From Macrostomum hystrix (lineage: Eukaryota; Animalia; Platyhelminthes), in assembly GCA_950097015.1 (NCBI GenBank), contig CATNEN010000038.1, forward strand, positions 744,001-808,000: a DNA stretch of 64,000 bases, given 5' to 3'. Below the pieces are notes generated by a model. The model did not search any database and was not told the origin of the DNA. It saw only the letters and a program-made list of their open reading frames with translations. Positions 31,425 to 63,069 of the stretch are shown here, in pieces. The position numbers and the translations under genes were made by a program. Numbering within the stretch: the first letter of the stretch is position 1; every line of letters begins with the position of its first letter.

Positions 31425-31871
31425 CATATTGCTGCATTGAAGAGAGACGTGGATGCATCGGACTAGGCTAGTTGGGGGCGAACGTAGTATTGAGCCGCGA
31501 GGCGCGAAGCGCCGAGCACCGAGGCCGCGGCAGGGGCCGAGGTCCGAGGCCTTGGTAGAGGCCGAGGGGCGAAATCGGAGTGAGCCCCACCTAAGATCCA
31601 GCGTACGTAGTGAGATAGAAAACACCTCGAAAATCACTCATTTTCAAGGTATATTGGGCGCCATTTGAGACTGCCTCAACCGTTTGCCTCGCGGGTGGTG
31701 TCGTTGGGTAGGTAACTTATAGGGTTATCCAATTTATGGCGGTTGGTTGCCATGTCAACGGAAAACTGCCATTTATGGAAATCGATTTTACGCAAACTCA
31801 TTTCCAGCGCTCATTTTTTCTGGCACGGAGAAAAGTTGAGACACAAAAGTTGCGGGCAGGCCTGGCCCAGG

Positions 31872-32601
31872 AGTAGTATGCAAGAGGGGGCTTCTAGGAC
31901 AAAAATAATCGCAGCCTCCATTATCCACAAACCATTACCTTTATTATTCACGAAGAGATCAGGAAAAAAAGGGTCCCCGCCTCTCTCTAAAAAACTCCGT
32001 CTCCATATTCTAAATTCTCTACTTTTAATATTCCACATCAGTTTGTGAGTTGCATATCTAGGACAAAAAATTATCGCAGCCTCCTTAATGCACAAACCAT
32101 TACCTTTCCTGAAGGAAAAAGGTTCCCCGCCAAAAAAAATCTGTCTCTACAGTTTGTGAACTTGGACAAAACAAATTATCGCAGCCACTCCCTAAGAGAT
32201 CATGCACAAAATAGCGAAGCTGCAAAAAGCGTGCCAAGACAATCAAATTAGCACTAAAATCCCATTCCCCAAACTCAAGACCCCAAACCTAGGGTGCTCA
32301 TCCTCCGAAAAAAAAATTATATTCTCATTAAAAATGCTCCCAACCGTCTCTCCAGGATCTTATTACAAAAGTCATGAGCCTAATTACAAGAGTAAATACC
32401 GATGCAAACAAGAATGCAGCGAGTACATGAGAAAATATTGGCCCGGCGTGGATATCAACGTCCCTAATATTAATCAAGCTCTCCAAAGACACTGGTTTCA
32501 TAACACTGGAGTAACCATAAAGGACTATGACAGCTACTATAACTTTGCAGAAATCATTAAGCAGCTTACATTCTCTCAATGATCAACGTCAATACAAACT
32601 C
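31872..32601 (+). repeat. Left TIR (~730 bp)
   Basis: Reverse complement of 46319-47045 with scattered mismatches; internal GGACAAAA-(1-4 nt)-ATCGCAGCC-type subrepeats. Confidence 0.95.
32334..32582 (+). CDS. TIR-encoded 82-aa hypothetical protein (left copy)
   Basis: TTAAAAATG start context like other element genes; open in both TIRs; diverged homolog at 52485-52723. Confidence 0.6.
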   Translation: MLPTVSPGSYYKSHEPNYKSKYRCKQECSEYMRKYWPGVDINVPNINQALQRHWFHNTGVTIKDYDSYYNFAEIIKQLTFSQ

Positions 32602-33363
32602 TTCACCGTTGAAATCAACGCCAACACCATCTTCCGTCTCAAACTGCAGCACAATCTCGTGAATCTCCTTATTACTTAGCACAACTCTTTTCACTGGATT
32701 TGGTTTCTCTACCAGCATCTGTCCTCCAGGAACAGAGTTTGAGATGTTGTACAAAATATTCGTTCGCTTTCCCTTAAATACCCAATCACGACTGAGATTA
32801 CTTCTGATTAGAATATTCAAACCCTTTACAATATCTGCGATATTGGGTGCTAAGAACAGACCGCTTTTATAAACATTCTTCTCGAATCCCAATTCCCTAT
32901 ACCATGTGTCATCTTTAAATTCAACCTCAGCATCTTTGTGAACTTGCATGACCACTCTCATTACAGTGAGATCATAGGATAGTTTGACAGGGAACAGTTT
33001 CTTCTCTGGCTTGCTCTCATTGGGTGTTTCAAAATGGCCTGTTTTAGTAAAAATATTTTCTAGAAAGTAATTGTAGGTATCCACACTTTGCGTGCTCACA
33101 GGGAATACCACAGCTTCTGCTGCTGCACCTCTCCATTTGTAATGAAACTTATTATTTGCTGCTGTCACATTGGGAACGTTTGACCAACCAGTGAAGTCGT
33201 TAAGATATACATGGTAATTAGCACTTGGATCCAGGCGAATCGCCTGCTCTAATTTTTCAACAAATATCCCGTTTGGGTCATTAATTCGCCCAGCTATTGT
33301 AATAGGAATGCTCTCCTTAGAGTGAGAAATAATATTATTTAGTCTTTCAGCAATCGCTTCCAT
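32566..33363 (-). CDS. Minor capsid protein (penton, single jelly-roll)
   Basis: 265 aa next to the major capsid gene; C-terminal NILY...VPGGQMLVEKP...I.EI.L...EDG..VDFNGE..VLTL pattern typical of Polinton pentons. Confidence 0.8.
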   Translation of the reverse strand: MEAIAERLNNIISHSKESIPITIAGRINDPNGIFVEKLEQAIRLDPSANYHVYLNDFTGWSNVPNVTAANNKFHYKWRGAAAEAVVFPVSTQSVDTYNYFLENIFTKTGHFETPNESKPEKKLFPVKLSYDLTVMRVVMQVHKDAEVEFKDDTWYRELGFEKNVYKSGLFLAPNIADIVKGLNILIRSNLSRDWVFKGKRTNILYNISNSVPGGQMLVEKPNPVKRVVLSNKEIHEIVLQFETEDGVGVDFNGEEFVLTLIIERM

Positions 33364-33386
33364 TTTTCAGCCCCGAAAAAAAATAT

Positions 33387-34673
33387 TTAAACTTTACTGG
33401 ATGAATTGTTGATCATGTTAAGCTTCACCTTCCTCTCGAACGCATAGATAATGTACAGGTCAACAGCAGTTGCGGCAGTCCTCTCAATGTTAGTCACGAT
33501 ATTCACAGGGCTGTTATCAGTAGGCATTTGTCTGGCAGACACATCAGCGCCAAACATCGGATAAAGAGTTCCATATTGAAGAGCAGTGATAGCAATTCCA
33601 TTGTTCTCTTTCACAGCCAAGTCGACCAACTCGCTGTAAAATTTGCTAATCTTGTTCTGACTGAAATTTCCATTTTGTGGCAGTGCAGGGTAAAGATTAT
33701 CACTGATTTCATGCTGAATGGACCGCACGTCTCCATGCATGTAGCGTATAATGTTATTTGGGTTTCTCATGTTAATAATAATATACCTTGGATTGCTGCA
33801 TGATCCCTCTTTAATGCAGATGTTTGTTCTGGGTTCGTTTCGCTCATCTCGACACATGTAGGCCGTGTAGGCGACATCAATGTCCTTCTCTATGGCCTTG
33901 AGATAATCTGCTTTTAGTGCGGTCTTTGGCTCAATGACTTCCAAATACAGCTCGATTCCGGTTAGCTTCACTTCCATCCTAGTGTGGTCCGCCCCAGTCC
34001 ACAACACTCTACTGCGATCATCTCTAGTCATCTTAAAGGTGTAGCTGAAGTTACTAGTCAGTCGATTAAATGTATTACAGAATCCACTCATGAATCTCAG
34101 TGGTACGAATACATCAACAGACCGATACAGCGGGTTCTTAGCAGCATCATCAGCACCTTGCAATGCATAGTTGTATCTCTTCTTCCTCTTTTTATAGCCA
34201 CTGTCATTGATATCTCCTTCTTTTTCATCTGCAATGAAACCTGCACCACTCCCCAACTGAATAAAATCTGGATTCTCGATCAAACAATGAGCGTCATAGA
34301 CAATTCCAAAGTTGGCGATTCGCTCCAACTCTGTGCTCCCATTCGATACACTAAACTCCTTGAACATGTACGCCCAAAAGTTACTAATCAGAGCCACATC
34401 TGCATCATGCTTGTCAACGTTAGCATGAGCTGCATCCGCACCTCCCTTTGTCTTGAATTGAAATGTCATATGGAAGCCGCTCTTAAGACTGTGCACACTA
34501 ACCAGAGACGAACATCCATTGTAGGTGAATGTCAGTGTTTGACCAGGACCAAGATTAGTTTCATTCTGATTTTCCTGACTGGGAACTCTTACTTGAGTCG
34601 CTTTGATTGTGCTATCATCACTCAAAATAGGCTTGTTAATTTTGTAGAAAACTGGTGTCAGTAGGTCGTTCAT
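33387..34673 (-). CDS. Major capsid protein (double jelly-roll)
   Basis: 428 aa from AAAAAAAATG (MNDLL...); N-terminal I...DDST...P...NL...TLTF, F....VSNG.E.E and LYP/FGADVS patterns of Polinton MCPs; size and position fit. Confidence 0.82.
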   Translation of the reverse strand: MNDLLTPVFYKINKPILSDDSTIKATQVRVPSQENQNETNLGPGQTLTFTYNGCSSLVSVHSLKSGFHMTFQFKTKGGADAAHANVDKHDADVALISNFWAYMFKEFSVSNGSTELERIANFGIVYDAHCLIENPDFIQLGSGAGFIADEKEGDINDSGYKKRKKRYNYALQGADDAAKNPLYRSVDVFVPLRFMSGFCNTFNRLTSNFSYTFKMTRDDRSRVLWTGADHTRMEVKLTGIELYLEVIEPKTALKADYLKAIEKDIDVAYTAYMCRDERNEPRTNICIKEGSCSNPRYIIINMRNPNNIIRYMHGDVRSIQHEISDNLYPALPQNGNFSQNKISKFYSELVDLAVKENNGIAITALQYGTLYPMFGADVSARQMPTDNSPVNIVTNIERTAATAVDLYIIYAFERKVKLNMINNSSSKV

Positions 34674-34704
34674 TTTTTTTAAACTAAAAAAAATAAAATA
34701 AAAA

Positions 34705-35892
34705 ATGAAGCGAAAAAATGCGCACCAAATATCTGAATTGGAGAAGCTAGCACAAGCAGAAAAGAGAGTTACCGGGCTAATCAATAAGGAGCAACAATCC
34801 TACAATGAGTTTGTCCATGCAGCCACAGAGTTTCATAAACCCGGGTATGGAGAAGCTAAGAAAAATATTGATCAAGTCAAAGAAACTATTGACGACATAC
34901 AGGAAACCCAGGTGCAAAAGGCTTTGGACAAAATTCCAGAAGCACCGCAGATACAACAATCTGCAGAATCGCATCAATCACAATCACTAAAAGTAACGGA
35001 TAACATTTTTGGACCAGTAGAACGTGTAGAACATGATGGGAAATATGTATTTGGAATAAGTATGTGGAGAAAAAACATTTATAATTAACCAGTGGAATAT
35101 TATATCGACATAAATAAGAACCATATTTCTGTTGTCAAAGGCTCAGAAACTAAGAGAATAATTTACACAGAAACCTTACTGAATTTTATGACTAAGAACC
35201 AAGAGAAAATTTCGGACAAGCAGCTAAAGAACTATAGAGATCTAGTACCTTTTGCTCTTGCAAGAGATATAGAAATACTAAAGGTCCCACAAGTTCTGAA
35301 AATAATGCATGACAACGGTGTCATCCTGACTAGATTCAAAAAGTACAAGCATTTTAAACAATGGTTTGGTTTGCCAGATCAAGAAGATGCCACAAAATAT
35401 CTAGAACAGCAACCGCCACAGCAGCAACCGCCACAGCAGCAACCGCCACAGCAGCAACCGCCACAGCAGCAACAAACATTCAAACCCGAAGACATACTCA
35501 GGCAACTGGAAAATGCAGATCCGACTCTAGTAGCTAATTATAAAGAAAATCACTCGGATGCCTGGCAACAACTAGAAAATTTCTCCCCAGATCGAATGAA
35601 TAAAATCAAAGCAAGAGTGTTCACACCACAACAAAGACCAGTAGTGAGTTCACCTTCAGACCAGTCCTCCACCGACCAGTCCTCCACTGACCAATCATTT
35701 CTTGAAAACCCCACTGGAAAAGGAATTTCTGACATCTATAAGCGAGTGGCTGTTCTTCTTGGAGCTGCAAAGACTGGCATGAAAGACGAAAATAGAAAAG
35801 AATTTGTCAACATCCTGGACAAAATGATGGAAAAGAAGTATATCGACAAACGGGCAAGAGAGCTTCTGCTTTCACGTTTTAACAAAAAATAA
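34705..35892 (+). pseudogene. Polinton uncharacterised protein (~395 aa, putative virion core) interrupted by an in-frame TAA at 35086-35088
   Basis: ORFs 34705-35088 and 35092-35892 are in the same frame; C-terminal GKG...RVAVLLGAAKTG...EFVNILDKM motif resembles a recurrent Maverick protein; QQQPP repeats. Confidence 0.65.
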
Positions 35893-35910
35893 TTTCTTCC
35901 CTAATAAAAA

Positions 35911-36303
35911 ATGCCAATTATTTTCGAAAAAGACGTGGACAAATACTATGACAAGGAGGAACTTAATCTAATTAAGCGTGGATCCGGACTTTTCCCGGCA
36001 GGCCACTATCCGAGGAAAGAACGCTCCGGGAATGGTCTTGCTGACATGATTGCACAGGGTGCTCGGGTCTTTAAAGTCATTAGTGAGAACAAAGAAAATA
36101 TTAAGAACGTGGCTGAATCAGTGGGAAGCGTTGTCACTGCGGCTAAAAAGATAAAGGATACTGTAACACAAGATATTCAGCCACCATTGGCACCATTGGC
36201 TCCGCCGGCTCCGCTGGCCCCGAATCCAGACAGTGTGGACCCTGCAATCTACGAGAAGATGAGAGCTAGCATTAAAAAAGGAAGTGGTTTCAAATTCGAC
36301 TAA
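35911..36303 (+). CDS. Small putative core protein with GxG protease-site-like motifs
   Basis: 130 aa; TAAAAAATG start; KRGSGL, RSGNGL, KKGSGF; amphipathic segment and Pro-rich tract. Confidence 0.7.
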   Translation: MPIIFEKDVDKYYDKEELNLIKRGSGLFPAGHYPRKERSGNGLADMIAQGARVFKVISENKENIKNVAESVGSVVTAAKKIKDTVTQDIQPPLAPLAPPAPLAPNPDSVDPAIYEKMRASIKKGSGFKFD

Positions 36304-36344
36304 AGGGTGCTTTTCGAGGGTACAAGACATGTAAGGGTACAAGA

Positions 36345-36430
36345 CTAGTCCCAAATAGACACATCTAAGTCCCAAATAGACACATCTAAGTCCCAAATAG
36401 ACACACCTAAGTCCCAAAAAGACACATCTT
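36345..36430. repeat. 21-bp tandem repeat (AGTCCCAAATAGACACATCTA) x~4
   Basis: Directly visible, intergenic upstream of the ATPase. Confidence 0.85.
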
Positions 36431-36472
36431 ATAAATGATTTACATTTTTTATTTATTTTTCATCATAGAAAA

Positions 36473-37273
36473 ATGGACTTTTCAAACGACTTCAATCCTC
36501 ATTGGACACGTAATCAGATTAAGTTTTCTCATCATGAGTCAATCCCGGGGCACTTCAGATGCATTGTTGTTGGTTCGTCAGGTTCAGGCAAAACATTCAG
36601 AGTCTTTAACATGCTTCTTAGACCTGGCTTTATCGATTATGACACTCTGCACATCTACTCTCCCACCCTGTATCAAGATGAGTATAAAATGTTGATCTCT
36701 GGACTTCAAAACAGACTGCACATAGAACACATTATTCAATGTTTTAATAACCAAAAGAGCCTTCCCAGTAACCCAGAAATTGTAGCTGCCGAATTTGCAA
36801 AGCACCTCAAAGACAATGAAAAATGGCAGAACATTAAAGTGTTCACCTATGGAGATCCGCAGGTTGATCCTAAGACCAAACTTCTACCCCAACCAGATGA
36901 GCTAGAAAAGGGGAGAAAACATTTGATTGTCCTTGATGATTGCATGACAGGCCCACAGAAGCAGATAGAAAACTATTTTACAAGAGGACGGCACAACAAT
37001 TGTAACGTGATTTACATTGCCCAGAACTGGTTCGAGCTCCCGAACAAAACAATTCGTGGGAACTGCAATCTGATCCTCCTGTTTCCAACAATTCCACAGG
37101 ACAGGCTAAAAAGATTTTACAATGAGGTCATTGCGCCTGCCTATTTTGTAAATCCAACAAAAAACTCCAACAGAAAGATTTCACAGGAGGAATTCGTTAA
37201 TCTTTGCTATGAAAAGTGGAATCAACCTTACCAGTTTGTGATGATCAACAAAGAAAAAAGAACTGTAATTTAA
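36473..37273 (+). CDS. A32/FtsK-HerA family DNA packaging ATPase
   Basis: Walker A GSSGSGKT, Walker B LIVLDD, FTRGRHNNCNVIYIAQ motif, IRGN. Confidence 0.95.
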   Translation: MDFSNDFNPHWTRNQIKFSHHESIPGHFRCIVVGSSGSGKTFRVFNMLLRPGFIDYDTLHIYSPTLYQDEYKMLISGLQNRLHIEHIIQCFNNQKSLPSNPEIVAAEFAKHLKDNEKWQNIKVFTYGDPQVDPKTKLLPQPDELEKGRKHLIVLDDCMTGPQKQIENYFTRGRHNNCNVIYIAQNWFELPNKTIRGNCNLILLFPTIPQDRLKRFYNEVIAPAYFVNPTKNSNRKISQEEFVNLCYEKWNQPYQFVMINKEKRTVI

Positions 37274-37298
37274 ATTAATTTAAAATTTCTATTAAAAA

Positions 37299-38027
37299 AT
37301 GTCTATTAATTTTGCAGGTGAATCGTTGGATCGCGGAAGCACACTCACTAGTGCTCAAGTTTCTTACCTTGACAGGCGTTATATAAATGTTGACGAAAAA
37401 ATTCCAGAAATCAAACTCATTAAAGATCGATTGAAAGCCCTAGAGCGGGCAAAACACCAACAACAAATAAACATGGAAGACCTGCGGTTGAGCATAGCAA
37501 AGCGGAAGGAAGAGATTGACATGCTATATATACAGTTTGTTCATGATCGGGATACTCTTGTTGCAGCGATACCCACTCTAAGATCAGACATCGCCACTCT
37601 GAGATCAGACATCGTCACTCTGAGAACTGCCATTAATAATCGAGCAAACTTGGTGGAAGAAAGAGTAACAGAAAATTCAAATAAAGTTCGAAATTTAGAA
37701 GCCTTTATGCTAAGATCAAGCACTGTGCATGATAGATTGAGTTCGCGACTCACAGCAGCAGAGTCAGATATAACAACTCTTCAGAGACTAGAAAATGAAA
37801 CAAAGGAAACACTAAGACCCATGGGGCTAAACGTAACAAGACACACTGAGTATTTGAATCGGATATACAACGACTGGGGGAAAACGAAAAGAAGACTCGG
37901 CCGACTAGAGAGACTGCACAATCTGCCAGACATTGACATTGAAGAAGCAAGAGTATCTGATGGACCATCAGAAGAGGCATCAAGGGAGGCGGCAAGGCGT
38001 GCAACAGATTTGCGAGAAAGGTCATAA
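37299..38027 (+). CDS. Coiled-coil protein (possible fibre/spike)
   Basis: 242 aa; heptads TLRSDIA-TLRSDIV-TLRTAIN and RLTAAESDITTLQ. Confidence 0.7.
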   Translation: MSINFAGESLDRGSTLTSAQVSYLDRRYINVDEKIPEIKLIKDRLKALERAKHQQQINMEDLRLSIAKRKEEIDMLYIQFVHDRDTLVAAIPTLRSDIATLRSDIVTLRTAINNRANLVEERVTENSNKVRNLEAFMLRSSTVHDRLSSRLTAAESDITTLQRLENETKETLRPMGLNVTRHTEYLNRIYNDWGKTKRRLGRLERLHNLPDIDIEEARVSDGPSEEASREAARRATDLRERS

Positions 38028-38057
38028 AAAATTTATATAATTTTTTTCGTTCAATAA

Positions 38058-38696
38058 ATGTCTGAAAAAATAAACTCGCTATATGATCAAGAGCAACCTA
38101 GTGCTCCTTACCAACCTAGTGCTCCTTCAAACTACCAACCTAGTGCTCCCCTTTACCCAACTTTCACTTGCAACTCGCAGCAATTCAGATTGGTGGAGAT
38201 TCAAAAGATGCGAGCTGATATTGAACGGCAAATTGATCATAATACCAAGAAACTGAAGCGCTATAATAGAGAGTGCAAGGTCTTCGATTGCCTTAATATG
38301 TTTCTTGGATCTGTATCTGTTCTATCGGGATCAGCAGCTGCTGTTTCAACACTTCCTGTAATCACTGTACCAATCGCCATTCCATTCGGAGCTGCTGGTG
38401 CCACATGTGGTCTGATTTCAGCAGTTACAGGAGCACTATCACGGAACAGACGACAAAAGCTAAAGCATCTACATGCGAAGCAAACAAATGAGAAATCAGT
38501 ACAAAGCTCTATCATCGGGTACATCTCAAAGGCGATTGAAGACAAGTTCATTTCAGAGGATGAGTTTAAAAACATTCAAGCCCTCTATGAGCAACGAGTT
38601 AGGCTTAATCTAAATACCATTGATGAAATGAGCCAGCTAAGAAATGATCTGGAGAATGTGTTCAAACAGCATGTCGCGAAAAAGAACAAGACCTAA
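38058..38696 (+). CDS. Putative membrane protein with three PSAP motifs (resembles adintovirus GasderminX-type ORFs)
   Basis: 212 aa; QPSAPYQPSAPSNYQPSAPLYP; QFRL..I coiled segment; two hydrophobic Gly/Ala-rich segments; ISEDEF. Confidence 0.75.
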   Translation: MSEKINSLYDQEQPSAPYQPSAPSNYQPSAPLYPTFTCNSQQFRLVEIQKMRADIERQIDHNTKKLKRYNRECKVFDCLNMFLGSVSVLSGSAAAVSTLPVITVPIAIPFGAAGATCGLISAVTGALSRNRRQKLKHLHAKQTNEKSVQSSIIGYISKAIEDKFISEDEFKNIQALYEQRVRLNLNTIDEMSQLRNDLENVFKQHVAKKNKT

Positions 38697-38712
38697 CAGG
38701 ACCTAACGGGAC

Positions 38713-39120
38713 CTAAAAAAATTTTTTTTTCAGCCCTAAAATGATTTCTTTGTAACTCTTTCGGGTGTGGGTCATTGCATACAAAACGGTCATACACAGC
38801 TCGCCACAAACATCACTGTTAAGCCCTTGGAGTATAAAATCTGAGCGGTATATTTTATGTCTCACATGAGTCATATAATTTCTCAGTTGTTCAGGTACAG
38901 CAGTTCCATAGCTATCAAAGTAATAGTACTTGTGTTTACGGTTCGGATCAATTACCCAACAAACCCAATGAGAACCTGGCTTTTCTGCAGGGTCAAAGTT
39001 CATGATTCCACATTCTTTTTCTAGTGGGGTTTCTGGCAGTGTATCCTTCATAAAGACGCCTCGGAAGTTTGGGATTTTTAATTGCTGAGCCAGCTCTTCT
39101 AAATAAATATTGGTTGTCAT
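38713..39120 (-). CDS. Adenain-like cysteine protease
   Basis: GSHWV (His), YFDSYG (Asp), Q...SDVCGELC (Gln/Cys). Confidence 0.93.
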   Translation of the reverse strand: MTTNIYLEELAQQLKIPNFRGVFMKDTLPETPLEKECGIMNFDPAEKPGSHWVCWVIDPNRKHKYYYFDSYGTAVPEQLRNYMTHVRHKIYRSDFILQGLNSDVCGELCMTVLYAMTHTRKSYKEIILGLKKKFF

Positions 39121-39152
39121 TTTTTTTAACAATTTTTTTGTTACAAATTTTG

Positions 39153-42100
39153 TTACAAATTATTTAATCTATAGTGTCCAAATGGTAGGCTGTTAATGTT
39201 GTCAGCAAAGATATATCGTTTGTTATCAGCACCTGAGAGGCCTATCTTCTTCTGTTGAATTGTGTGAATGTTGTGGTTCTTAGACTGCAGTTTCATAAAT
39301 TCATGGGTAGTGTTTTTATTATTGGTCAATGCGTCCTTGTATGAAGCTTCATGGAGATCGTTTTTAACAACATGTTTTGGGATTCCTTTTGATTTTTTAA
39401 TGGTAGACTTACAACTTTTTACAAAATAGGACTTTGCCCTCAAACCGATAAACTCTGTAATGAGGGTGCCAGCCGTTTCATCCTTCATTTTTCCTACAAC
39501 TTTTTGATTTGTTGTATCACGTACTTGATCGCCTTTCAAAGTCTTGAAGGACTCTGGATATTCGGATAGGTCATACAGATGTTTTTGCTTCAACATGTCC
39601 TGATAGACATCCTCAGTCTGTATGTTTAGAATTAGGGAGTCTGTGTCAGTATATAGAAGTTTCAGTTGTTCACCATATTGCCGCTTCATGTCATAGAAGC
39701 ATTTATACATCAGGCGCTTCGATTCGTCAAGTACAGTCACACCTGTGAATATCGGCTTGCATAGGGTAACTTTAGTCTTATAGAACAGTATGGCGCCCAA
39801 GTAATCATTAAAGATATGAAGCTCTTGAAAGTGGGCTTTGATAAACTTGTCTGAATGATACCAGGCTCATAACAGGTAACGAGCTTCAGGTTCGTGCGGT
39901 TGCGTTCGTTTTCTAGGGTCTTGCCATAGACAGAGTTGTTTGCAAGCTTGAACAGGTCCCTGTCAAAGCTGTTTGTTGCTTTAGTTCTAAACTGGGTTTT
40001 TTTTCTATGTATGGCTTCATCCACGCTTCTTCTGTGAATGCGAGAGCCCTGTGAACTTTCGTGACCCTACAGCCTAGGGAGATAAAATACTGCAACAGTT
40101 TGTAGTGGATTTTATAGCGTGTCTTGTTCATGAGATTTTGTGTTAACTTTTTCACATGCTCTTTTTCTTTTTCAGATAGCTGCCAGCTTCCATTGTACTG
40201 GATTATCTTTGGACAGTTAATGTTCTCATGGAAGGGGGCAAAGTCAGAGAAATAGTCGTGAAGTTCCCATGGGATTTCAACATCAACTTCATAGATCGCA
40301 GGTATTGAAAAGTCTGTGTTGTATTCTGTTAGCCACCTAAAATCTCTAACAGGTAAATCTTGGCTCATAGCCCAACCATAGAGGTTGTTGGCATCCAGGT
40401 AAAGGATGTAGTTTGAAGGCTTTTCTTTATCATAGTCTTCTAGATACGGATTGTTTGCCTTTGCATGCCTATGGACACAAATTGAGATGCCACCTCTCTT
40501 AGATGAATCTATAAAGTTGTACATGTCTATGTCTGTAAGCAGCTCGATGTACCAGTTGGGATTTTGATCCCATTTCATTTTAAGCAATGATTCCCAACTG
40601 GTAGCAGGCAAAGACACATAATGAGCGGGGTCAAGACCATAAGCTGAGTACCAGGTCTTTCTAAAGGTTTCAAATACATCAGCTAGAAGAAAGACATCAG
40701 TCCAAAGGTAAAGCATGTGATAATCAAGAAAGTTTCGGCAGTTAAAATGTTTGTAAACAGTCTGAGCATGCTCATAATCTTCATCAGAAATCCCAGAGTT
40801 TGTTAGCTTTGAAAAGAACTTGTCCTTGGGTGGTAATTGTTCGGCAAAGACATGATTACATTCATAAGGGTAGACGCCTTTCTTTCTAAGAAGCTTAAAT
40901 GAATCTGGGGAATCTGCCAGCATCTTGGTATAAGTACGTTGGTCATCGGTGAGATTTTTACTCAAAGCATCGAGACTTGCGGCCAGAAACTGGAATGAAT
41001 CTTTGATCTTAATCTTGCCTGAATCTCGCTTAATATCAATGCACTTAAACTTTTCTTTGTTCTCTGCGATGCAATCTAGTTTAATGCCTGGTATCATACC
41101 CAGCTTCTCAATCAATAAGTGATAATCATATCCCCTTCCGTTATGGAAGAAAATGGTAAGGTCACGGATGTTTTTCTTTAGTTTCAGATTGCAAGTGTTA
41201 TGAGCTGCCCCTCTAAATTTTCCTGTGAAGTGATCGTGGTCTCTGACTGTGTGGTTTTTGGTGTCGCAGGGTGTTAATAGCTTTCGGCAAATGTGACAAT
41301 GAGTTGCAGATCCGAAGTCGATTTCATCTTGATCGGACATAATTATTGGAACAGGCTGAATGGCAGCAACATTTTTCTGTAATTCCATCATCGAGTAAAT
41401 GAATTGTTCAACACACTGGTCACCTAAGAAATAGTTTGAGCAAAAGTTTGAGCAAATAAAAGAGTCTCTTCCAATAAAGAGATACGCAACAGAATTTGGG
41501 ACATGCTTATTGGTTTCAGGGTTTATAGTGCATTCGAAGTCAGCGTATACTATAAACGGGAGCTTCTCCATCTTGTGATAACTCTTAAATCTGAGATGCT
41601 TATCCGTTGGAAGTGTGCAGTTGGTTGGATGATCTTCACAGGTCAGTTCATGCTCTTTAAGTTTTTCATCACGATCGGGTCCACTATAATGCTTCAGACA
41701 AAGACGGCAGATTGCTACCGATTCATGATGATTGTTCATTTGCTTGTGGAGGAGCCTGGAAAGATCTTTAATCCAAACGTAGTGGGCATTTTCTCGCAAA
41801 TCACCTATGATTAGAAGATCGACATCTATGCAACGCCTACCTTCAGGATCTAGCGTGTTTTTACTGGCTCTGACTAATTGTACTTTTTTGCTCTTCTCAT
41901 TCCATTCAAAGACTGTGATTCTGATTTTATTGTTAAAGACTTCCTCTAGCTTTGGGATTTGATCGATTGCCAAGCCGCCTCTATTGAAGGAAATTCCTTT
42001 AGCATGGCATTCTAAAAGTTTTGCGTCAAAATACATTTTATAATGAGAAGTTCTCTCTGGGTGGGCTCGATCTTTCTCATACAATATTGCAGACAAAACG

Positions 42101-42938
42101 GCCCATAGTGCACAGCATTGGTCATAATTTTGCACATTGATGCATGCTTTTTTACTCGCTAGCTTTTTCGGGAGCTCAATATATGATGAAGCTTTGAGAG
42201 GGTCATATTTCATGATCATTACTGTAGCTTTTTGAATGCCATTGACAACCCAACCTGATCCTCTGGAAGTAAAGGCGTCAATCTTTTTACTGATCTCTTG
42301 AAGAAAGGGATCCTGTGTGTCAGTGGGAGTAAAGGGTAGAGCTTTAGTAGTCATGTAGTATTCAAGACGCTCAGTGGGTTTTGCAGGCATGTAAAATTCA
42401 ATCTTGAATGATAACTGAAGCTTGAAGGTCTTACGTGACTTCAGTGTGTGATCAATTACTGATTGAATTCTGTCTTTGAAGTCGTAAATGTCGGATTGGG
42501 AATTTGTGGTGTCTTCCTGGATTGTGTACTCAATATAATACTCTGTGAATTTTCTCTGTGCAAATTTAAGGTCTTCAGTTTGTAGCTCTGCTTCAACCTG
42601 GTGGATTGTACGTTCTAGATCTTCTTGCTCTTGCTTATTCTGTGGGTAGTTCGACACATTTTGACCTGTGAGTGTCTCATACTTATTGACTAAGCTGCGG
42701 CTCTTTTGTTGATGCTCAGTCGCCGGCTTCTTCACTGGTGTGTACTGCTCTGAATGCTGAAGCTGATTAATAATTTCTTGCTGTATTGCATAGCTCCCGA
42801 GGTAGCCTGGATCTTGATTGAATTTCTGCCTGCAAAGCTCTTGCAGGACTTGACTTTTTTGTTGAAACGATTGAGCTTGAGGATAATTATTTTGAAAGAA
42901 AGATTCGACAATTTTTTTTCTGGAATTGCTTTAGGCAT
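39153..42938 (-). CDS. polB: Protein-primed family B DNA polymerase (three single-base frameshifts in this sequence)
   Basis: Exo motifs YADFE, HNGRGYD, Y...DV; Pol motifs YLDANNLYGWAM, KLANNSVYGK, YTDTDS; frames join at ~42915, ~40000 and ~39815. Confidence 0.95.
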
Positions 42939-43032
42939 TTTTAATGAAAATTTTATAAAAAAAAATTTAGGGTGGTCACCCTCAAGTGAAGTGCAAAGTA
43001 TTGCAAACTACTACCAACAGTGCTAAATATAG

Positions 43033-43395
43033 TTATGAGAGCAGATTCTGTTCTGTTTCGTTTTCACAACTACCCCCGATTCTGACTCCTTTTTCTCTAG
43101 CGATTTTCTCCATCTCTTGTTGATGTGCTCTGTCATTGCCAGCCTTCACAGCTGATGCAACTCCGCCGGCTACACCTCCTGCAGCACCAAGAGCACCTGC
43201 GATGATGGGGATAAGAGTTAGCAAAGGAAGAATCCCGCCTGTCTTCTCATCAGTGATATTGTGCGTTTGATTGTTACAATGGATCATATGCTGGATTGGA
43301 TCTACTTTGACTTTGACACCTTTAATTGATACAACTCCTGGCTTCTTAGAGTCGATAATTCTGCTGATTTTATTCACGGTTCTGGTTTCAATCAT
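43033..43395 (-). CDS. Adenovirus protein X (pX)-like core/membrane-active protein
   Basis: KTGG-ILPLLTLIPIIAGALGA closely resembles adenovirus pX MRGG-ILPLLIPLIAAAIGA. Confidence 0.75.
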   Translation of the reverse strand: MIETRTVNKISRIIDSKKPGVVSIKGVKVKVDPIQHMIHCNNQTHNITDEKTGGILPLLTLIPIIAGALGAAGGVAGGVASAVKAGNDRAHQQEMEKIAREKGVRIGGSCENETEQNLLS

Positions 43396-43409
43396 TTTAT
43401 TTAAAAAAA

Positions 43410-44398
43410 TTAATTAATTTCTGTGTCATGTGGAATCACTAGAAGCTCAGCCCTTGTGAATGATCGTGTGGGGGCTTTTGAATTAAAGTCTTGAGATAGA
43501 AAATAGTAATCACCGGATGCTGATGTGAAATGCCTGTTTATCTTATGTACATCAAGACTAAAGTATGGGTCTGTTGCTCTTCTATTTGTGTCCTTCTCTA
43601 GCTCTCCTGGTAAGTAAAGGAAGCGAACGAATTCAGAGTTAGTAAGAATTTCCGGAGAATAAACACCAGGGAGCTTTGGAAATGGGAATTGGGAGATCGG
43701 ATGTTTTGAATTAACTGTGTCTTGTTTGATGGCAGTATTTGGTTTCAGGTTTGTCATTCGAGATACTTCATTGTTCAGTTGACTTATTACTGCGGGGAGT
43801 CTTTCTGTCCACTTGGTATAGTATTGGCCACTTTTTAGTTTCAGCTCTTCAGCTGTCTGCTTTGTGAAAAGTCTCTTTGCTAGAGTTAGATTGAATCTTT
43901 CAACAAAAGCCTGGTCTCTATGGAGCTCAGTTCTTCCGTAGCGCATTTTCGTATTGTTCTTTTCCATAAGGGATTTGACTGCACCCATGAATTCTTTGCC
44001 AGGATCAGTCATAAAGGTTTGGGGGTATGTGAGCGGTGAGTTTTTGTAAATGTCTTGGAGGGCAGCTGCAACTGCTTCTGACTTTTAGTCTTAAGCGGTC
44101 TCGCTTCCTTATATCTGGAGGCAATGTCTATAACTGTGAGCGCATACTTGTAGCCTGAGTCATTGGGGAGAAACAGAAGATCTGCTTGGTGCGCTTCATT
44201 AGGTTTATAGATGTTAAAGTGAGGTCTTGTAAATTTAACAGGTGGGAAATAGACTTGGTAAACTGCTTGCTTAGAGAGCCATCTTTCAACTGTTTGTTTT
44301 GATTCATTGCTTAGTTCTGCGAGTTTAGTGACTGCATTTTTTCCTACAAAGAATCCTTTGTCACTGTAGTAGAGCTTTTGAAGTTTCTGATCTGCCAT
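43410..44398 (-). CDS. int: Retroviral-like DDE integrase (one frameshift at ~44080)
   Basis: HQADL, YKYALTVIDIASRY, TDPGKEF, VERFNLTL; ORFs 44009-44398 and 43410-44012 join with one added base. Confidence 0.93.
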
Positions 44399-44425
44399 TA
44401 TTTTTTATTTAATTTTTTTATAAAA

Positions 44426-44869
44426 ATGATGCAACGCTCTGGTGGTAAACTAGACTCACATGGACTGGTAGAAAAGCTTCCTCATCCAAACAAAGGCTGG
44501 ACAATTCCCGGCTACAAATATTGCGGGCCTTTGAATCCGCTTGAAACACAGCTAGATAAAAACAATAATCCTAATCCTGGGCATGAACCCGTGAACGAGC
44601 TAGACTCTGTCTGCATGTGGCATGATATTAAGTATAGGGATTTTCCAGAGGAGAAGAATCGCTGGGACAAAGAAATGCTCAGAATGCTAGACAATATAGG
44701 GACTTCAAGCGGGTGGAGGGAATCGATCGCTCGGAAGCTAGTTAAAGCTGTTATTTTTGGTAAGGCAAAGTTGGGGTTGGGGATTGGTGGGGTGGGTTTT
44801 GTATTGCACGCGCCAAATAATGAACTAGGAAGACTGCTGAAAGAGCTGGGGGTTGAGAGAGCAGAATGA
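44426..44869 (+). CDS. Parvovirus VP1u-type phospholipase A2 (PLA2X)
   Basis: PGYKYCGP Ca-binding loop, PVNELD..C..HDIKY catalytic motif, downstream D..ML; TAAAAATG start. Confidence 0.9.
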   Translation: MMQRSGGKLDSHGLVEKLPHPNKGWTIPGYKYCGPLNPLETQLDKNNNPNPGHEPVNELDSVCMWHDIKYRDFPEEKNRWDKEMLRMLDNIGTSSGWRESIARKLVKAVIFGKAKLGLGIGGVGFVLHAPNNELGRLLKELGVERAE

Positions 44870-45209
44870 TTCAAGAAAAAAATTCTGCCAAAAAGTCTGC
44901 CAGCCGGCATAAAAAGCGCCACCGAGACTTTTTGGCAGAAAGCGCCGATTGGAGAACTAAAAAATCGATTTGCTGACTGCATGAGCATTCAGCTTTTAAA
45001 TACTGAGAGAAGATAAGGAGCATTTCGCTCGCTTCGCTGTGCTCCTTGTCAGCTTACTATTTTATACCAAACTATCAAGAAGGCAACGTGGACTACGTTT
45101 TCATAGTCAAGAGGTGACTCAAGGTAAGAAACTATTGACCAAATTTCAAATATTGAGTTTCTGCATTAGTAATTCATTTTCAAACTAAGACCCATCTTAA
45201 GTTTTAGAA

Positions 45210-45881
45210 ATGGAGCATGCTTGGATGGTAAATTTGCAAGGAGATCAACAGAAGGCGCAACTTTATAGTCTGCTCAATGTTGCAATCGAAGCAATCGAAA
45301 GTCCTGCGAAGAAAGAGCAGCTAATAAAAGGATTTATAGAATTCTTTAACTTAGATCGGGATTATTTTAAACGCCGAATTCTTCAATTAACCGAGGGTGA
45401 AAATCTGGAATCGGGCGACTACGAAAGGCAACTTCAAGCCTTGCGTCAGATAAAGCGGGAGGAGACTTTCGCCAAGCTGCTAGCCGATTCCCGTTTGAGT
45501 AATAGTAGTGCTCTAATTCAACCACCTGATGAAAGTGACACCTCAATCGTCAAGCACATTAAGTATCACCTCCATCAGATGAAAAAGTCACAACGAAATG
45601 GTCTGCGTGCTGCAATAAGCATAGGAAAGTTTCTTGTGGACTTTAAGGCGCAGGAGACTCGGCGATATTTCAAGATGATAGTAAAGGAGCACTATAACTA
45701 TCTCCTTGAAAAGGTCCAAATAAAGCGGGCAGCCGCCTCGCTTTATGTGACCCTATTCAAACTTTCGATTGTATACCCAGGACTTCAGCAAGTTTCGCTG
45801 CCGATTCGTGAACTTGACGGCAAGCTGAAGCTTCTACAGACAGTTTTAGAGAAAGATTCATCCTGGAAAACTCTTCTTTGA
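45210..45881 (+). CDS. Accessory hypothetical protein (223 aa, helical)
   Basis: Intact ORF inside the element; candidate 5'-UTR intron 45124-45207. Confidence 0.7.
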   Translation: MEHAWMVNLQGDQQKAQLYSLLNVAIEAIESPAKKEQLIKGFIEFFNLDRDYFKRRILQLTEGENLESGDYERQLQALRQIKREETFAKLLADSRLSNSSALIQPPDESDTSIVKHIKYHLHQMKKSQRNGLRAAISIGKFLVDFKAQETRRYFKMIVKEHYNYLLEKVQIKRAAASLYVTLFKLSIVYPGLQQVSLPIRELDGKLKLLQTVLEKDSSWKTLL

Positions 45882-45883
45882 TC

Positions 45884-46228
45884 TTTTGTCTAACGCGTTA
45901 GATTTTTTCTGCATATGTCTTCAATATAGTTACTCGCATGCTAAAGCGTTTATGTATGTCTGTTTTGTCTAACGCGTTAGATTTTTCTGCATATGTCTTC
46001 AATATAGTTACTCGCATGCTAAAGCGTTGTGTATGGCTGTTTTGTCTAACGCGTTAGATTTTTTCTGCATATGTCTTCAATATAGTTACTCGCATGCTAA
46101 AGCGTTGTGTATGGCTGTTTTGTCTAACGCGTTAGATATTTCTGCATATGTCTTCAATATAGTTACTCGCATGCTAAAGCGTTGTGTATGGCTGTTTTGT
46201 CTAACGCGTTAGATTTTTCTGCATATGT
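45884..46228. repeat. ~78-bp tandem array (~4.4 units) with palindrome TCTAACGCGTTAGA
   Basis: Perfect 14-bp palindromes start at 45889, 45968, 46045, 46123 and 46200. Confidence 0.93.
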
Positions 46229-46318
46229 ATGTATAGTCTGAAACGCTCGAAAAAAATTTTATGCAAGCCGTCTGTTCTTAGCACCCAATATCGCAGACAT
46301 TGTAAAGGGTTTGAATAT

Positions 46319-47045
46319 GAGTTTGTATTGACGTTGATCATTGAGAGAATGTAAGCTGCCTAATGATTTCTGCAAAGTTATAGTAGCTGTCATAGTCCTT
46401 TATGGTTACTCCATACTTATGAAACCAGTGTCTTTGGAGAGCTTGATTAATATTAGGGACGTTGATATCCACGCCGGGCCAATATTTTCTCATGTACTCG
46501 CTGCATTCTTGTTTGCATTGGTACTTACTCTTGTAATTAGGCTCATGCCTTTTGTAATAAGATCCTGGAGAGACGATTGGGAGCATTTTTAATAAGAATT
46601 TAATTTTTTTTCGTAGGATGAGCACCCTAGGTTTGGGATCTTGAGTTTTGGGATTGTGATTTTAGTGCTAATTTGATTGTCTTGGCACGCTTTTTGCAGC
46701 TTCGCTATTTTGTGCATGATCTCTTAGGGAGTGGCTGCGATAATTTGTTTTGTCCAAGTTCACAAACTGTAGAGACAGAATTTTTTGGCGGGGAACCTTG
46801 TTCCTTCAGGAAAGGTAATGGTTTGTGCATTAAGGAGGCTGCGATAATTTTTGTCCTAGATATTCAACTCACAAACTGATGTGGAATATTAAAAGTAGAG
46901 AATTTAGAATATGGAGACGGAGTTTTTTAGAGAGAGGCGGGGACCCTTTTTTTCCTGATCTCTTCGGGAATAATAAAAGTAATGGTTTGTGGATAATGGA
47001 GGCTGCGATTATTTTTGTCCTAGAAGCCCCCTCTTGCATACTACT
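46319..47045 (-). repeat. Right TIR (~727 bp)
   Basis: Reverse complement of 31872-32601. Confidence 0.95.
46338..46586 (-). CDS. TIR-encoded 82-aa hypothetical protein (right copy)
   Basis: MLPIVSPGSYYKRHEPNYKSKYQCKQEC...; six residues differ from the left copy. Confidence 0.6.
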   Translation of the reverse strand: MLPIVSPGSYYKRHEPNYKSKYQCKQECSEYMRKYWPGVDINVPNINQALQRHWFHKYGVTIKDYDSYYNFAEIIRQLTFSQ

Positions 47046-49502
47046 CCCAGGCGAGGCAGGAAAGCGATTTTTCAATTTCCTCATAGTCTATGGTGAAAGT
47101 GCAAAAAAATACTTTTTGGTACTGTATTTTTGGGTTACATTTTCCAGCGCAGCTCCCCAAGGGCTGAATCGATCGTCACGCGGGTGGTGTCGTTTTTTCT
47201 ACTCGGTGAGTTCTTTCCAGCGAGGTATGAGTCAACGGACTGCGAGTGTACCGCGCGCCTGATATCTGATGAATTTTACACTTGCGTGCTGCACGATACT
47301 GCAGCTGAATGGCAGGTAGTTGCACTGCGCAAGTGGTGTCAAAAATTCGGCACGGATGCCTGCTACACGACGCTATGCAAGGCGACTCTATGCGATGCAC
47401 GGTTATCAAGCAGTACTTGGAAATGCAGTGCAAAACGTGCATTTTTGCTGTTTTCTCGAAAATGCATGCCGACCTTGGTGGAGTCAAAATTTTTTTTCGA
47501 AGACAAACAGTAGGACAGCTTAGCCGCAAGCAAATGTGCACAAGATTAGGGCACATGACATACTGAGTCGGCGTTGATAAAAGTACATCGCAAGTGTACT
47601 AAAAGTACATAATAGTGCACATGCACTTTAGTGAAAAATTGGTATTTTTCTCCTTTTGACGCGCGCATTTCGCGAAATTCGGCTCCGAATTTGTCGAATG
47701 GTGCGTCAATCTACTGGAAATATTGTTTTGCGTCTAACAAGATATTGCGCGCACCTTTCGGCCCTACCCGGGCTGAGAAAGTCCACCCAGACTGGGGAAA
47801 GGTCGGTTTCGGGACCGGTGCAGACCTTGCTGTGCTCAAACCTACGGCTGGAGGCGAAAAGGGCGCAATACTCCTTGAGCTTGGTATTGAAAGATGCACA
47901 TCCCATGTGGGTATATGGGAAAAATACTACACGTATTACCTGTCAGGATTATTACCTGAAAATGTAATTATGCACAGCGTGTACATTGTGCATTATATCT
48001 GCTAATTGTATCTTTGCTTATTTGATCCTGTACACATTTAATTAGGGTAATGCTCAACTACATTAAACAATTGGTCACTTTTACATTGGCAAAATATGTT
48101 CACTCAGATAAAGGACAAGTGAAAAGTGGAAAAATCCACCCATTCCATTCATTAATTCCACCCATTCCATTCTTATAATGGCAGCCTGCAACACCATGAG
48201 AGATGCATCATGCAAGCCGACTATATCTATAAAGCTATAATATAAATATATAAACATATTCTGATTTCCACATTTTTGTATCATATAAATAAAGTGTTTA
48301 ACTTTTTGCCTCAATGTTTTAAGTCTTCATAGTAATGTATGTTTCCAATTATTATTTTCCGCATCTTAATGTCTGGGAGGGCTCCTCTCTTACTTGTTAA
48401 TATTCTATCACGTGCATGGTCACAGGGCTTTTTAAACTTTAGCAATCTTAATTAGTATAACACTTTATAATATTATATTAGAGTAGTTATTTAACTCTAT
48501 GATAGCATGCAAGTGTCCGAGCGGCAAGACACTACTCTTTACTTATTAATATGAATAACTCGTATGTATATTATTTGCACTGATTATAAATTATTGACAC
48601 ACAGTCTTATTAGGCTCAGTCCCAATAAAGGGCTACCAGTGGATCGGAGGGTGTCCAATCTTACACACAATCACTCTCTTATTCGGAATTACTCCTTATT
48701 TAATCAATTTCACTTTGCAAATCTGCAATATTTGAATCCCTTCTGGGCCTTTGTGTATAATTTCGATCAAAACCTGGATATCTTAGTTCAGTACGAATTC
48801 TCGCTTATGACATACAATTTCCAGCTTGTAGCCTTTAGCTAAATAATGAAATAAGAAAACTTGATTTGCTTAAACAGCTTGTCTTACGAACTTGCGGAAG
48901 AAACGCCAGTTGGGGATCTTTCCGTCTAAAAACCGCTTGTATATATAAAGTTTCTTTCGGAGTGGCGGACATGATTTTTAACAAAAAACGTCAGATAAAC
49001 AGATATTTAATTATACGGTAACGCTACGTTTCTAAGACTTACAAAAATTTAAATGTAAAAATACGACATTAATCGCAGGCAGCTACTACAAATGTATGCT
49101 GATCAATGGCATCCATGTTACTTGTAAGTGTTGCATTTTACTTACTGCTTCTTTGACTGTTTAATGTGTTTGTCTGTGTGTTTTGTATTTTGCTGGAGCA
49201 TTGCATTTATGTTGCAACTTGCCTTTGCAACATCGTTTTTCAAAGGAAAAACGAAATTGAAACCGAAATTTTATTAGTTGAAGCTTGACTTAGAAATAGA
49301 ATACACAGGCTACAGCCCTCCATGCATTTGTCAGTGTTTGTTTGTGGGGACGAGATTTCTGTCTATTTCGGCTTGAATGTACATAAGCTGGGGCCAAGGC
49401 TTTCGCTTTCGCTTGCGGTGATGGAATGGATGGCTGTGCCACCCGATCGATAAAAATCTAGGGGGTTCTCTCAGCCTGAGTGTCTGTGGCTTGAAGGAGG
49501 GC

Positions 49503-51096
49503 TATCCCGATGAAAACGTTACCGTGACAAGAGTCGCATTTGAATCGTTTTATGTGATTCAAATGCGCGTCAAGTGATTCAAATGCGCGTCTAGTGACTC
49601 AGAAACGATTCTAGTGATTCTAAAACGATTCAAGGGTGGGTGAGTGAGTCGCACAACATTTTCGGATGGCTAGAATCGTTTCTGAAGCGTATCTGATGCG
49701 TTTCAAGTTTTTCACACAGTTTCTGCAACGTGTTAGAACGAATTCAAGTATTCTTCCTGCTGCACAGTATTTATGTCGGATTCCTACCCGACACTTGACA
49801 TTTCATTTAAATCTGCTATTGTAATTAATAAGCTCTAACTCAATTTCACCTCAGTTACAAACTATTTATCCATGCTAATTTAGACAGGCCCAACCCCAGC
49901 CGAAGTGACTTATTAAAAATACAGACTACAAAATGCTATGCATCTTCATTATCTATCCTCAACTAACCTAACTTTGAAATAGTTGTCTCAACGACAATTT
50001 TGTCTCAAAGAACCACCCCCATTTGTATTTCAGAGCCACCAAACAGCATGAAGAGGCGACCATGTTGCGATGGAGCATATTGGACCTGGGAAACTGTGTG
50101 CAATGTTTCCTTACTTCTACAGAATTCCACTGTATGCTCGTAACTATGATCAAATGTGGCGAATTGACGACTTAGTCTGACGGGCGGACTTTGAACTTGA
50201 CTCGTGACGCTGACTCTATTTTTGTGCTTGTTCTTTTTACAATGAGCTCTCAGTTGTAGGCAAAGTAAAGTATTTTTAGTGTCATAGTGCCACGTTTTTT
50301 ATGACTAGCGTTCATGCCGCAGTTCGGACGCCGTGGGGCAATTGAAACTGCTGCGACTTTAAAAAGAACAAGCACAAAAATAGAGTCAGCGTCACGAGTC
50401 AAGTTCAAAGTCCGCCCGTCAGACTAAGTCGTCAATTCGCCACATTTGATCATAGTTACGAGCATACAGTGGAATTCTGTAGAAGTAAGGAAACATTGCA
50501 CACAGTTTCCCAGGTCCAATATGCTCCATCGCAACATGGTCGCCTCTTCATGCTGTTTGGTGGCTCTGAAATACAAATGGGGGTGGTTCTTTGAGACAAA
50601 ATTGTCGTTGAGACAACTATTTCAAAGTTAGGTTAGTTGAGGATAGATAATGAAGATGCATAGCATTTTGTAGTCTGTATTTTTAATAAGTCACTTCGGC
50701 TGGGGTTGGGCCTGTCTAAATTAGCATGGATAAATAGTTTGTAACTGAGGTGAAATTGAGTTAGAGCTTATTAATTACAATAGCAGATTTAAATGAAATG
50801 TCAAGTGTCGGGTAGGAATCCGACATAAATACTGTGCAGCAGGAAGAATACTTGAATTCGTTCTAACACGTTGCAGAAACTGTGTGAAAAACTTGAAACG
50901 CATCAGATACGCTTCAGAAACGATTCTAGCCATCCGAAAATGTTGTGCGACTCACTCACCCACCCTTGAATCGTTTTAGAATCACTAGAATCGTTTCTGA
51001 GTCACTAGACGCGCATTTGAATCACTTGACGCGCATTTGAATCACATAAAACGATTCAAATGCGACTCTTGTCACGGTAACGTTTTCATCGGGATA
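49503..51096. mobile_element. Non-autonomous foldback DNA element: 737-bp inverted arms, 120-bp spacer
   Basis: 49503-50239 is the reverse complement of 50360-51096; identical mirror ORFs in the track; GGC on both flanks; absent from the homologous site at ~3830. Confidence 0.92.
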
Positions 51097-52005
51097 GGCA
51101 TAGCGGGCCAGCCCCTCCCTTTTGCTTAATGTACATGGCCCAGCTCAGGTTGTCTTATCTAAGTTCTCTCCACCTGCAGAGCAGAGAGGTCCCTTTCCTT
51201 TGCGTTGTTAAAATATATGGCTTATTGAAATGGGCGATGTATCCCTTCACCCACAGGGCCACAACCCACAAGCCCCCTCAATGTACATTGACATAGATTA
51301 AGATAAAGATTAAGAATGGTATCGTGTTAGGTAGATTTAAGAATTTTATCTAATCCCGGATCAGCAAAAGCCGGGATTTTGCGACCCCTAGCATCAAGTA
51401 GTGTGTTGGGGTTACGACCCAGCAAGTCAAAGTAAAAAAACATGCACATCTTTTCAACCTCAAAAACCCGTTTTTTGACCCTTTGACCCAGAAGATGGGT
51501 CAGCAAGAAAAAATCCATATCAAATCATTTTAGGCTTCTATAGCTCGCATCGACTGGATAGTCACTTGGCGACACCATAAACTGCCGAGAAAAGCGCCGA
51601 GAGACAAATTTTTGTCATGTCCAAAAATATCTTGTTTTTGGTTGCCATTGCAACCAAAGCGCGTTGCCATGGCAACGCTTTTAACTTCAGTACATAGACC
51701 TAAGTCTTTTACATGTTTTACAAAAAACCGCATCCAAATCGGTTCAACTGGGCAAAGGCGGCAATCGTTAGAAGTTGAAAAACGTGCTTTACTATCCCGA
51801 CACGGTGGTTACATCTTATCAAGATGAGATATCACATCCGATCCGTATCACTCATCCCAAATAGAGCTGAGCACAGATCCTATATACACGGATCCTTATA
51901 TACATCTGGCTCACTCATCCCAACTAGATAGAGCAATTAAAAAGATAGGAAAGGCTGCAGGAAATTTAGATGGTATAGCAAATGAGCACATTATCCACGG
52001 ACAGG

Positions 52006-53734: not shown

Positions 53735-53807
53735 CTTAAGTGGTCTCGCATCTTTGTATCTGGAGGCAATTTGTCTATAACTGTGAGCGCATACTTGTAG
53801 CCTGAGC
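53735..53807 (-). pseudogene. Polinton integrase fragment
   Basis: Matches 44090-44160 (SGYKYALTVID...). Confidence 0.75.
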
Positions 53808-62724: not shown

Positions 62725-63000
62725 ACTGCATGTTCTACTTAGCATCTGATACTCTGATGACTCATTTGACAGACTGTGCTGCATGTTCTACTAAGCATCG
62801 GATGAGTCATATGACCGACTGTGCTGCATGTTCTACTTAGCATCTGATGAGTCATTTGACAGACTGTGCTGCATGTTCTACTTAGCATCTGATGAGTCAT
62901 TTGACAGACTATGCTGCATGTTCTACTTAGCATCTGATGAGTCATTTGACAGACGGCTGCATCTTCTTCTTAGCATCTGATGAGTCATTTGACAGACTGC
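62725..63000. repeat. ~44-bp tandem repeat (CTGCATGTTCTACTTAGCATCTGATGAGTCATTTGACAGACTGTG-like)
   Basis: About six units here; about one unit at 29765-29820 in copy A. Confidence 0.85.
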
Positions 63001-63069
63001 GTTCGACTGCGTGCAGTTTTAGCAAAAAGAATCGGTTTGTTTTTCCTGTTCATTCCCGCTACAATCAGT

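Follow-up and report, generated by a model that had tools for sequence, protein, structure and literature searches.

The 64,000-nucleotide stretch of Macrostomum hystrix DNA analysed here (assembly GCA_950097015.1, contig CATNEN010000038.1, positions 744,001 to 808,000; hereafter the window) contains an endogenous element of the Polinton/Maverick/adintovirus type. It carries all six genes by which Polintons are defined in 10.1101/2023.08.22.554363, namely a protein-primed B-family DNA polymerase (pPolB), a retrovirus-like (rve) integrase, an ATPase, a protease, and a major as well as a minor capsid protein (Table 1). Its length of 15,174 base pairs (bp) and its repeats of 730 and 727 bp fit the range given in the same source: 13-25 kb, with terminal inverted repeats of 100-1500 bp and a duplication of 5-8 bp, usually 6 bp. 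The ends, (AGT)2//(ACT)2, match one of the two Maverick end motifs described in PMC8097293, where they are given as the commonest in vertebrates, the other being (AG)3//(CT)3. When aligned, the two repeats show 707 matches, 20 mismatches and three one-base gaps (97% alike), and an identical 6-mer on either flank would arise by chance about once in 4000 cases (4^-6, by arithmetic).

An earlier sequence-only reading, made from the letters and their open reading frames (ORFs), had called this a complete element with about 15 ORFs and a full virion module. The identity and the virion module hold, as do both ends, the duplication and the repeats of about 730 bp, but the polymerase, the integrase and the gene at 34705-35892 are broken. 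In all there are 14 distinct genes, three broken ones among them; the copy in the right repeat brings the number to 15. The capsid, ATPase, protease, phospholipase A2 (PLA2) and pX-like frames are open, as that reading had it.

The element is flanked by ADAM reprolysin and disintegrin exons, a long interspersed nuclear element (LINE) and a gypsy element, surroundings that point to an animal genome, and an ADAM metalloprotease gene unit is tandemly duplicated in the window (about 3700-30500 and 49200-64000, about 89-97% alike). In three of the four sequencing runs compared (X1, X3 and X5, from two studies), contigs carry the unoccupied target with a single CCCAGG, as a joint 31865->47046 in which six letters fit either side. 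The joint was not found in the fourth, X9, an outdoor metagenome with related sequence. This joint demonstrates the duplication, not necessarily an empty allele. Reading it as an empty allele was dropped, since the X1 contig has a depth of 1057 against about 65-165 at the other joints listed and may represent other copies of a repeat. The target is probably a repeat itself, because the X1 joint is about ten times deeper and the window departs from the second ADAM unit at 31472. The Polinton lies within an unassigned insert of about 1.3 kb (31472-31871 and 47046-about 47993), which is absent from the corresponding place of the second ADAM unit and has a multi-copy look in X1.

Coding sequence makes up 85% of the element. 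The gene order begins with the small ORF of the left repeat, followed by the penton and major capsid genes on the minus strand and by two function-unassigned genes, the ATPase, a coiled-coil protein and a SLATT-like protein on the plus strand. The protease, polymerase, pX-like and integrase genes (minus) come next, then PLA2 and an orphan ORF (plus), before the small ORF recurs in the right repeat. Pfam and NCBIfam family scans were made, with Pfam applied to 18 frames; the ATPase, protease, pX and PLA2 matches lie above the Pfam cutoff, and those for the capsid, rve and endonuclease VII lie below it. A start context of at least 84% AT over 25 bases followed by AAATG, a threshold set after the starts had been seen, is found at 14 of the 562 ATGs in the element and at 11 of the 18 starts listed. 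One of the two parts of this context is lacking at the penton, the integrase and ORF 45210, and both are lacking at all four internal ATGs of broken pieces.

Table 1. Features of the element and its target site, in window positions (aa, amino acids).
Feature	Position	Strand	Remarks
Polinton element	31872-47045		15,174 bp; begins AGTAGT, finishes ACTACT
Target-site duplication, left	31866..31871	.	CCCAGG
Target-site duplication, right	47046..47051	.	CCCAGG
Left terminal inverted repeat	31872..32601	+	730 bp
Right terminal inverted repeat	46319..47045	-	727 bp; contains second 82-aa ORF
82-aa ORF in left repeat	32334..32582	+	Typical start context
82-aa ORF, right-repeat copy	46338-46586	-	
Minor capsid protein (penton), 265 aa, predicted	32566..33363	-	Open
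Double jelly-roll major capsid protein, 428 aa, predicted	33387..34673	-	Open
Function-unassigned gene	34705..35892	+	In-frame stop 35086-35088
Basic protein, 130 aa	35911..36303	+	Three G-x-G motifs following basic residues
A32-like genome packaging ATPase, 266 aa	36473..37273	+	Open; Pox_A32 E 4.5e-6, above cutoff; Walker A, B
Coiled-coil protein, 242 aa	37299..38027	+	Weak coiled-coil family matches only
SLATT-like membrane protein, 212 aa	38058..38696	+	Open; SLATT_1 E 1.5e-5, below cutoff
Adenain-like cysteine protease, 135 aa	38713..39120	-	Open; Peptidase_C5 E 5.5e-5, above cutoff; His, Asp, Gln, Cys motifs
Protein-primed B-family DNA polymerase with endonuclease VII insert	39153..42938	-	Broken
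pX-like protein, 120 aa	43033..43395	-	Open; Adeno_PX E 4.4e-6, above cutoff
Retrovirus-like (rve) DDE integrase	43410..44398	-	Two frames, split near 44080
Parvovirus-type phospholipase A2, 147 aa	44426..44869	+	Open; PF08398 E 5.7e-15; YCGP, HD motifs
Variable accessory stretch	44883..46318	.	
Orphan ORF, 223 aa	45210-45881	+	In accessory stretch
78-bp tandem repeat	45884-46228		In accessory stretch
Inverted 72-bp fragment of penton gene	46247-46318		In accessory stretch

As judged from predicted models, the two capsid genes encode a double jelly-roll major and a single jelly-roll minor capsid protein, and the earlier assignment of both as jelly-rolls stands. The major capsid matches PF21738 at E 1.7e-4, under the Pfam cutoff. 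For its model (mean score of the predicted local distance difference test, pLDDT, 52.2), all PDB matches listed are jelly-roll capsid entries (best E 4e-10, template modelling score about 0.35-0.40), and the majority of named matches in BFVD are major capsid proteins. The penton model (pLDDT 71.6) finds minor capsid or penton proteins in BFVD (E 5e-12 to 3e-11) and aligns with the mavirus penton over 230 residues (Z 10.5, root-mean-square deviation 8.1), and the six matches with Z above 8 are exclusively capsid entries of jelly-roll viruses. Sequence searches of the PDB with the capsid and penton found no match.

The replication genes are in a different state. The polymerase homology occupies three frames, the switches lying near 40000 and 39830; all six relatives tested align across two frames and five of them across three. 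Exonuclease and polymerase motifs are present, and 297 homologues were found at E<=1e-60. A third break near 42900-42930 is probable, because the ATG with the start context, at 42938, is in another frame than the main piece, whose first in-frame ATG is at 42390, and one relative aligns 65 codons upstream of the latter. The first piece of the integrase matches rve at E 4e-4, IS481 and IS3 profile matches run on across both pieces, and the scores are weak because the gene is in two pieces. At the third broken gene, the ORFs at 34705 and 35089 share a frame and are split by the stop, with the typical start context only at 34705; no convincing Pfam family match was found for it.

Contigs of related copies in X1, X3, X5 and X9 differ from the window at both polymerase breaks and at the stop in all four runs, and at the integrase break in three; the run-to-window differences shown do not include the break near 42900. 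These defects are private to the assembled copy, because contigs of other runs differ there. The term 'intact', which PMC8097293 applies to Mavericks with uninterrupted core ORFs, does not describe this copy, as its polymerase and integrase are broken in the assembly. The copy as assembled is defective for its replication genes, with assembly error as a rival account, and it would need polymerase and integrase in trans, since both genes are broken.

The element belongs to a multi-copy family common to at least three organisms, here called A, B and C. Twenty runs from nine studies carry the whole or part of the stretch: more than half of its words are present in eight runs, from organisms A and B, and about a tenth in eleven runs of organism C. 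For organism C, the DNA run reaches 25 of 30 bins at 85% likeness and leaves the outer flanks uncovered. A contig of organism C links 32611 to 44882 on opposite strands, which points to a copy without the accessory stretch beside the right repeat. This stretch also has reduced summed depth in X1 and X3, and the slot adjoining the right repeat is swappable between copies.

The differences listed between copies fall mostly at third codon positions. In organism C this holds for 26 of 38 differences (p 1e-5), drawn from the 40 best supported of 568, two of which lie outside frames. The corresponding tally for X1, X3, X5 and X9 is 14 of 24 (p 0.01); of the 40 differences shown, from 1192, ten in the flanks and the stop were dropped, leaving 29, five of them outside frames. 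Together with the differences at the break sites, this suggests that the family has likely been active recently.

The family is apparently unnamed and has a tight, distinct capsid clade, although the element is ordinary in kind. A word search with the capsid gave nine matches (43-78% identity) without informative names, and a profile search gave 495 representatives at E<=0.001; the clusters of 20 capsid relatives likewise had no informative names. Among 94 full-length representatives compared, identity drops from 42% to at most 27% beyond the eight nearest. In a FastTree phylogeny of 95 rows, built without named reference sequences, the window and these eight (42-78%) form one group with support of 100, adjoining a group of capsids of roughly 480 aa (support 99). 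No confirmed relative was found among viral contigs (searched with capsid, ATPase and polymerase) or metagenome contigs (searched with capsid). The polymerase has a best relative at 39% identity, and its named relatives come from Pinctada, Leptopilina, Amphiura, Plutella and other invertebrates (molluscs, insects and echinoderms). The endonuclease VII insert motif is found in the window and in 116 of the 120 best polymerase relatives. PF03175 matches none of the three pieces of the broken polymerase and is carried by six of the 120 relatives listed. A literature search found no description of the family, though sequences in Repbase, Dfam and the adintovirus supplement may hold a closer relative. 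Orthopolintovirales insertions have already been reported in flatworms (10.1101/2025.04.19.649669).

With Polintons and Mavericks (Polintoviricetes), the element shares its size, 730-bp repeats, 6-bp duplication, end motifs and all six core genes. Vertebrate Polintons are described as having a two-module layout (PMC8097293); here the penton and capsid lie at one end and the integrase and PLA2 at the other. In contrast to Polintons, a small gene is duplicated within the terminal repeats, and no named capsid relative was found. The closest accessory set is that of Alpha-type adintoviruses, with which the element has PLA2, pX-like and SLATT-like genes in common. In the account of PMC8502044, PLA2 is characteristic of Alpha adintovirus virion modules and the group is defined by a PolB of the OTU-pfam03175 class; SLATT appears as a label on Alpha adintovirus maps in its supplement, in figure text whose layout is unsure. 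Alpha adintoviruses have PLA2X, a PLA2 whose C-terminal part is pX-like; the element's PLA2 has no Pfam pX match, and its pX match sits on a separate gene. As in adintoviruses, candidate OTU Cys and His residues can be picked out by eye in the N-terminal part of the polymerase. Among the BFVD matches, adintovirus entries come 8th with the capsid model and 41st-42nd with the penton model. A further resemblance is to invertebrate Polintons whose pPolB carries an endonuclease VII/HNH insert; the insert is shared with the element, at a best identity of 39%, and HNH inserts are described in nematode and oomycete pPolB2 (10.1101/2023.08.22.554363).

Taken together, the locus is very probably a full-length adintovirus-type Polinton with a 6-bp duplication and open capsid, penton, ATPase and protease genes, whose broken polymerase and integrase leave it dependent on related copies. 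The integrase would insert linear DNA via its AGTAGT ends with a 6-bp stagger, a step of which the duplication and the unoccupied target are observed and the rest comes from Polinton biology. By analogy with known systems, the polymerase would copy the excised linear form from its inverted ends by protein priming; pPolB terminal-protein and vOTU domains are described in this type of replication (PMC11161782). The ATPase would then package the DNA into the double jelly-roll capsid, with pentons closing it, and the adenain-like protease may mature small core proteins. The product of ORF 35911, for which no convincing Pfam family match was found, is a candidate for such processing; G-x-G motifs occur in this protein and in the pX-like and PLA2 products. 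The PLA2, pX-like and SLATT-like proteins may help entry or exit, a membrane entry role for PLA2 being described in PMC8502044.

Several points weigh against this account. The breaks may partly be assembly errors, as two of the four frame breaks adjoin runs of 8 bases. Only one premature stop is present, against about eight expected on a simple equal-rate model if the 2.75% difference between the repeats reflected decay since insertion (P ~0.003); the copy is therefore less decayed than its repeats suggest, and dating the insertion from repeat divergence was rejected because the stop count is too low for that divergence. The codon tallies rest on the best-supported 40 of 568 and 29 of 1192 differences only, confidence in the capsid model is low (pLDDT 52), and the replication, packaging and entry steps are only inferred. 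No single contig spans an entire sister copy. The first two points, along with the sister copies that do not have those breaks that could be checked, would also fit a recent, intact copy whose frame breaks and stop are long-read assembly errors, collapsed over similar copies. This seems decidedly unlikely, as the other two frame breaks lie away from long runs (longest adjacent run 3 and 4), one defect is a stop codon and not a length change, and the repeats differ at 20 positions, with six of the seven changed codons of the repeat ORF non-synonymous.

It is also conceivable, if doubtful, that the family is a germline transposon only and forms no particles, its capsid genes being leftovers. According to Jeong et al. 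(10.1101/2023.08.22.554363) and PMC8097293, Polinton virions have not been observed, and the present analysis shows neither a particle nor a free genome. However, in this copy every virion gene is open and the replication genes are broken, relatives of the capsid (42-78% identical) and penton (53-81%) keep their frames open, and differences between hosts favour third codon positions, a tally made over all genes and not the capsid alone. That the element is a free virus or contaminant co-assembled into a host contig is barely credible. The outdoor metagenome X9 has related sequence without the unoccupied-target joint, and the close capsid relatives all come from contigs of less than 6 kb, but the 6-bp duplication, the unoccupied target with one copy of it, and the older remnants of a related element, which occupy corresponding positions in the two ADAM units, speak for a true insertion.

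The sequence-only reading had also proposed that this copy or a sister could make particles and that the lineage was undescribed. For the former, the copy's own polymerase and integrase are broken but sister copies occur without the breaks that could be checked; the latter is borne out at family level, with no named capsid relative, but the gene set is standard and PLA2 and SLATT are known in adintoviruses. Particle formation by animal Polintons is presented as a long-standing open question in 10.1101/2023.08.22.554363 and PMC8097293, and this copy does not settle it. A single locus carries modest weight, as animal genomes commonly contain full-length Polintons whose virion genes are open; 134 intact Mavericks are reported in 17 vertebrates (PMC8097293) and 266 full-length Polintons in nematodes (10.1101/2023.08.22.554363). 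What is gained is the complete map of a multi-copy family that is apparently unnamed, has a distinct capsid clade and an unoccupied target, and has relatives in several hosts. Surveys of copies and the search for particles in host tissue can start from this map.

In organism C at 85% likeness, the five genes for capsid, penton, ATPase, integrase and PLA2 have roughly tenfold the depth of the polymerase, with summed values of 4e4-1.8e5 for the five, about 5e3-1.2e4 across most of the polymerase and below 200 across the non-coding repeat. Summed depth is not copy number, and polymerases more diverged than 85% would escape. A speculative and rather improbable extension is that the family is still moving among several related invertebrate hosts, probably as particles, with a large population of derivatives in organism C that keep the capsid, lack or have swapped the polymerase, and are served by a few helpers. 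If true, organism C, for which many public runs exist, would be a tractable place for a first sight of Polinton virions. Three presumed RNA runs covering the same five genes were dropped as evidence of expression, as their depth tracks the DNA profile.

Of the smaller genes, the repeat ORF has no Pfam or NCBIfam match. Six of the seven codons that changed between its two copies did so non-synonymously, as noted above, and in organism C it is covered at 85% whereas the non-coding repeat around it is not. The coiled-coil protein is possibly a fibre. The SLATT-like protein has neighbours in the Atlas among viral and mollusc clusters without informative names (score 0.93-0.94); a gasdermin-like identity was dropped because the protein scores SLATT-like, and no Pfam gasdermin match was found in any of the 18 frames, GasderminX being, with Cupiennin, an accessory gene of Beta adintoviruses. 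ORF 45210 is unlike ORF 34705 and has no family match in Pfam or NCBIfam.

Two deleted Polinton relics also lie in the window, at 8181-8320 with 15812-15963 and at 52006-52716 with 53731-53806. Each has an AGTAGT end after an identical 15 bases, about 70% likeness to the repeat of the full element and an integrase scrap, and an ORF remnant at 52488-52691 is 66% identical to the 82-aa repeat ORF. The relics are older than the ADAM duplication, because they stand at matching places in both units. The introns of the ADAM units are minisatellite-rich. At 49502-51097, two perfectly inverted 738-bp arms separated by 120 bp form either a foldback element or an assembly artefact. The LINE has an open frame of 1332 aa (10715-14713, minus strand) with endonuclease and reverse transcriptase; tandem arrays of a 27-bp unit flank it, at 9760-10654 and 14585-15048. 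GC-rich remains of a gypsy-type long terminal repeat retrotransposon lie in several frames at 20824-24793 (minus strand), and further possible gypsy-type remains, seen as GC-rich frames only, at 719-2952. A 15-bp unit is repeated in 120 copies, 98% alike, at 5222-7022.

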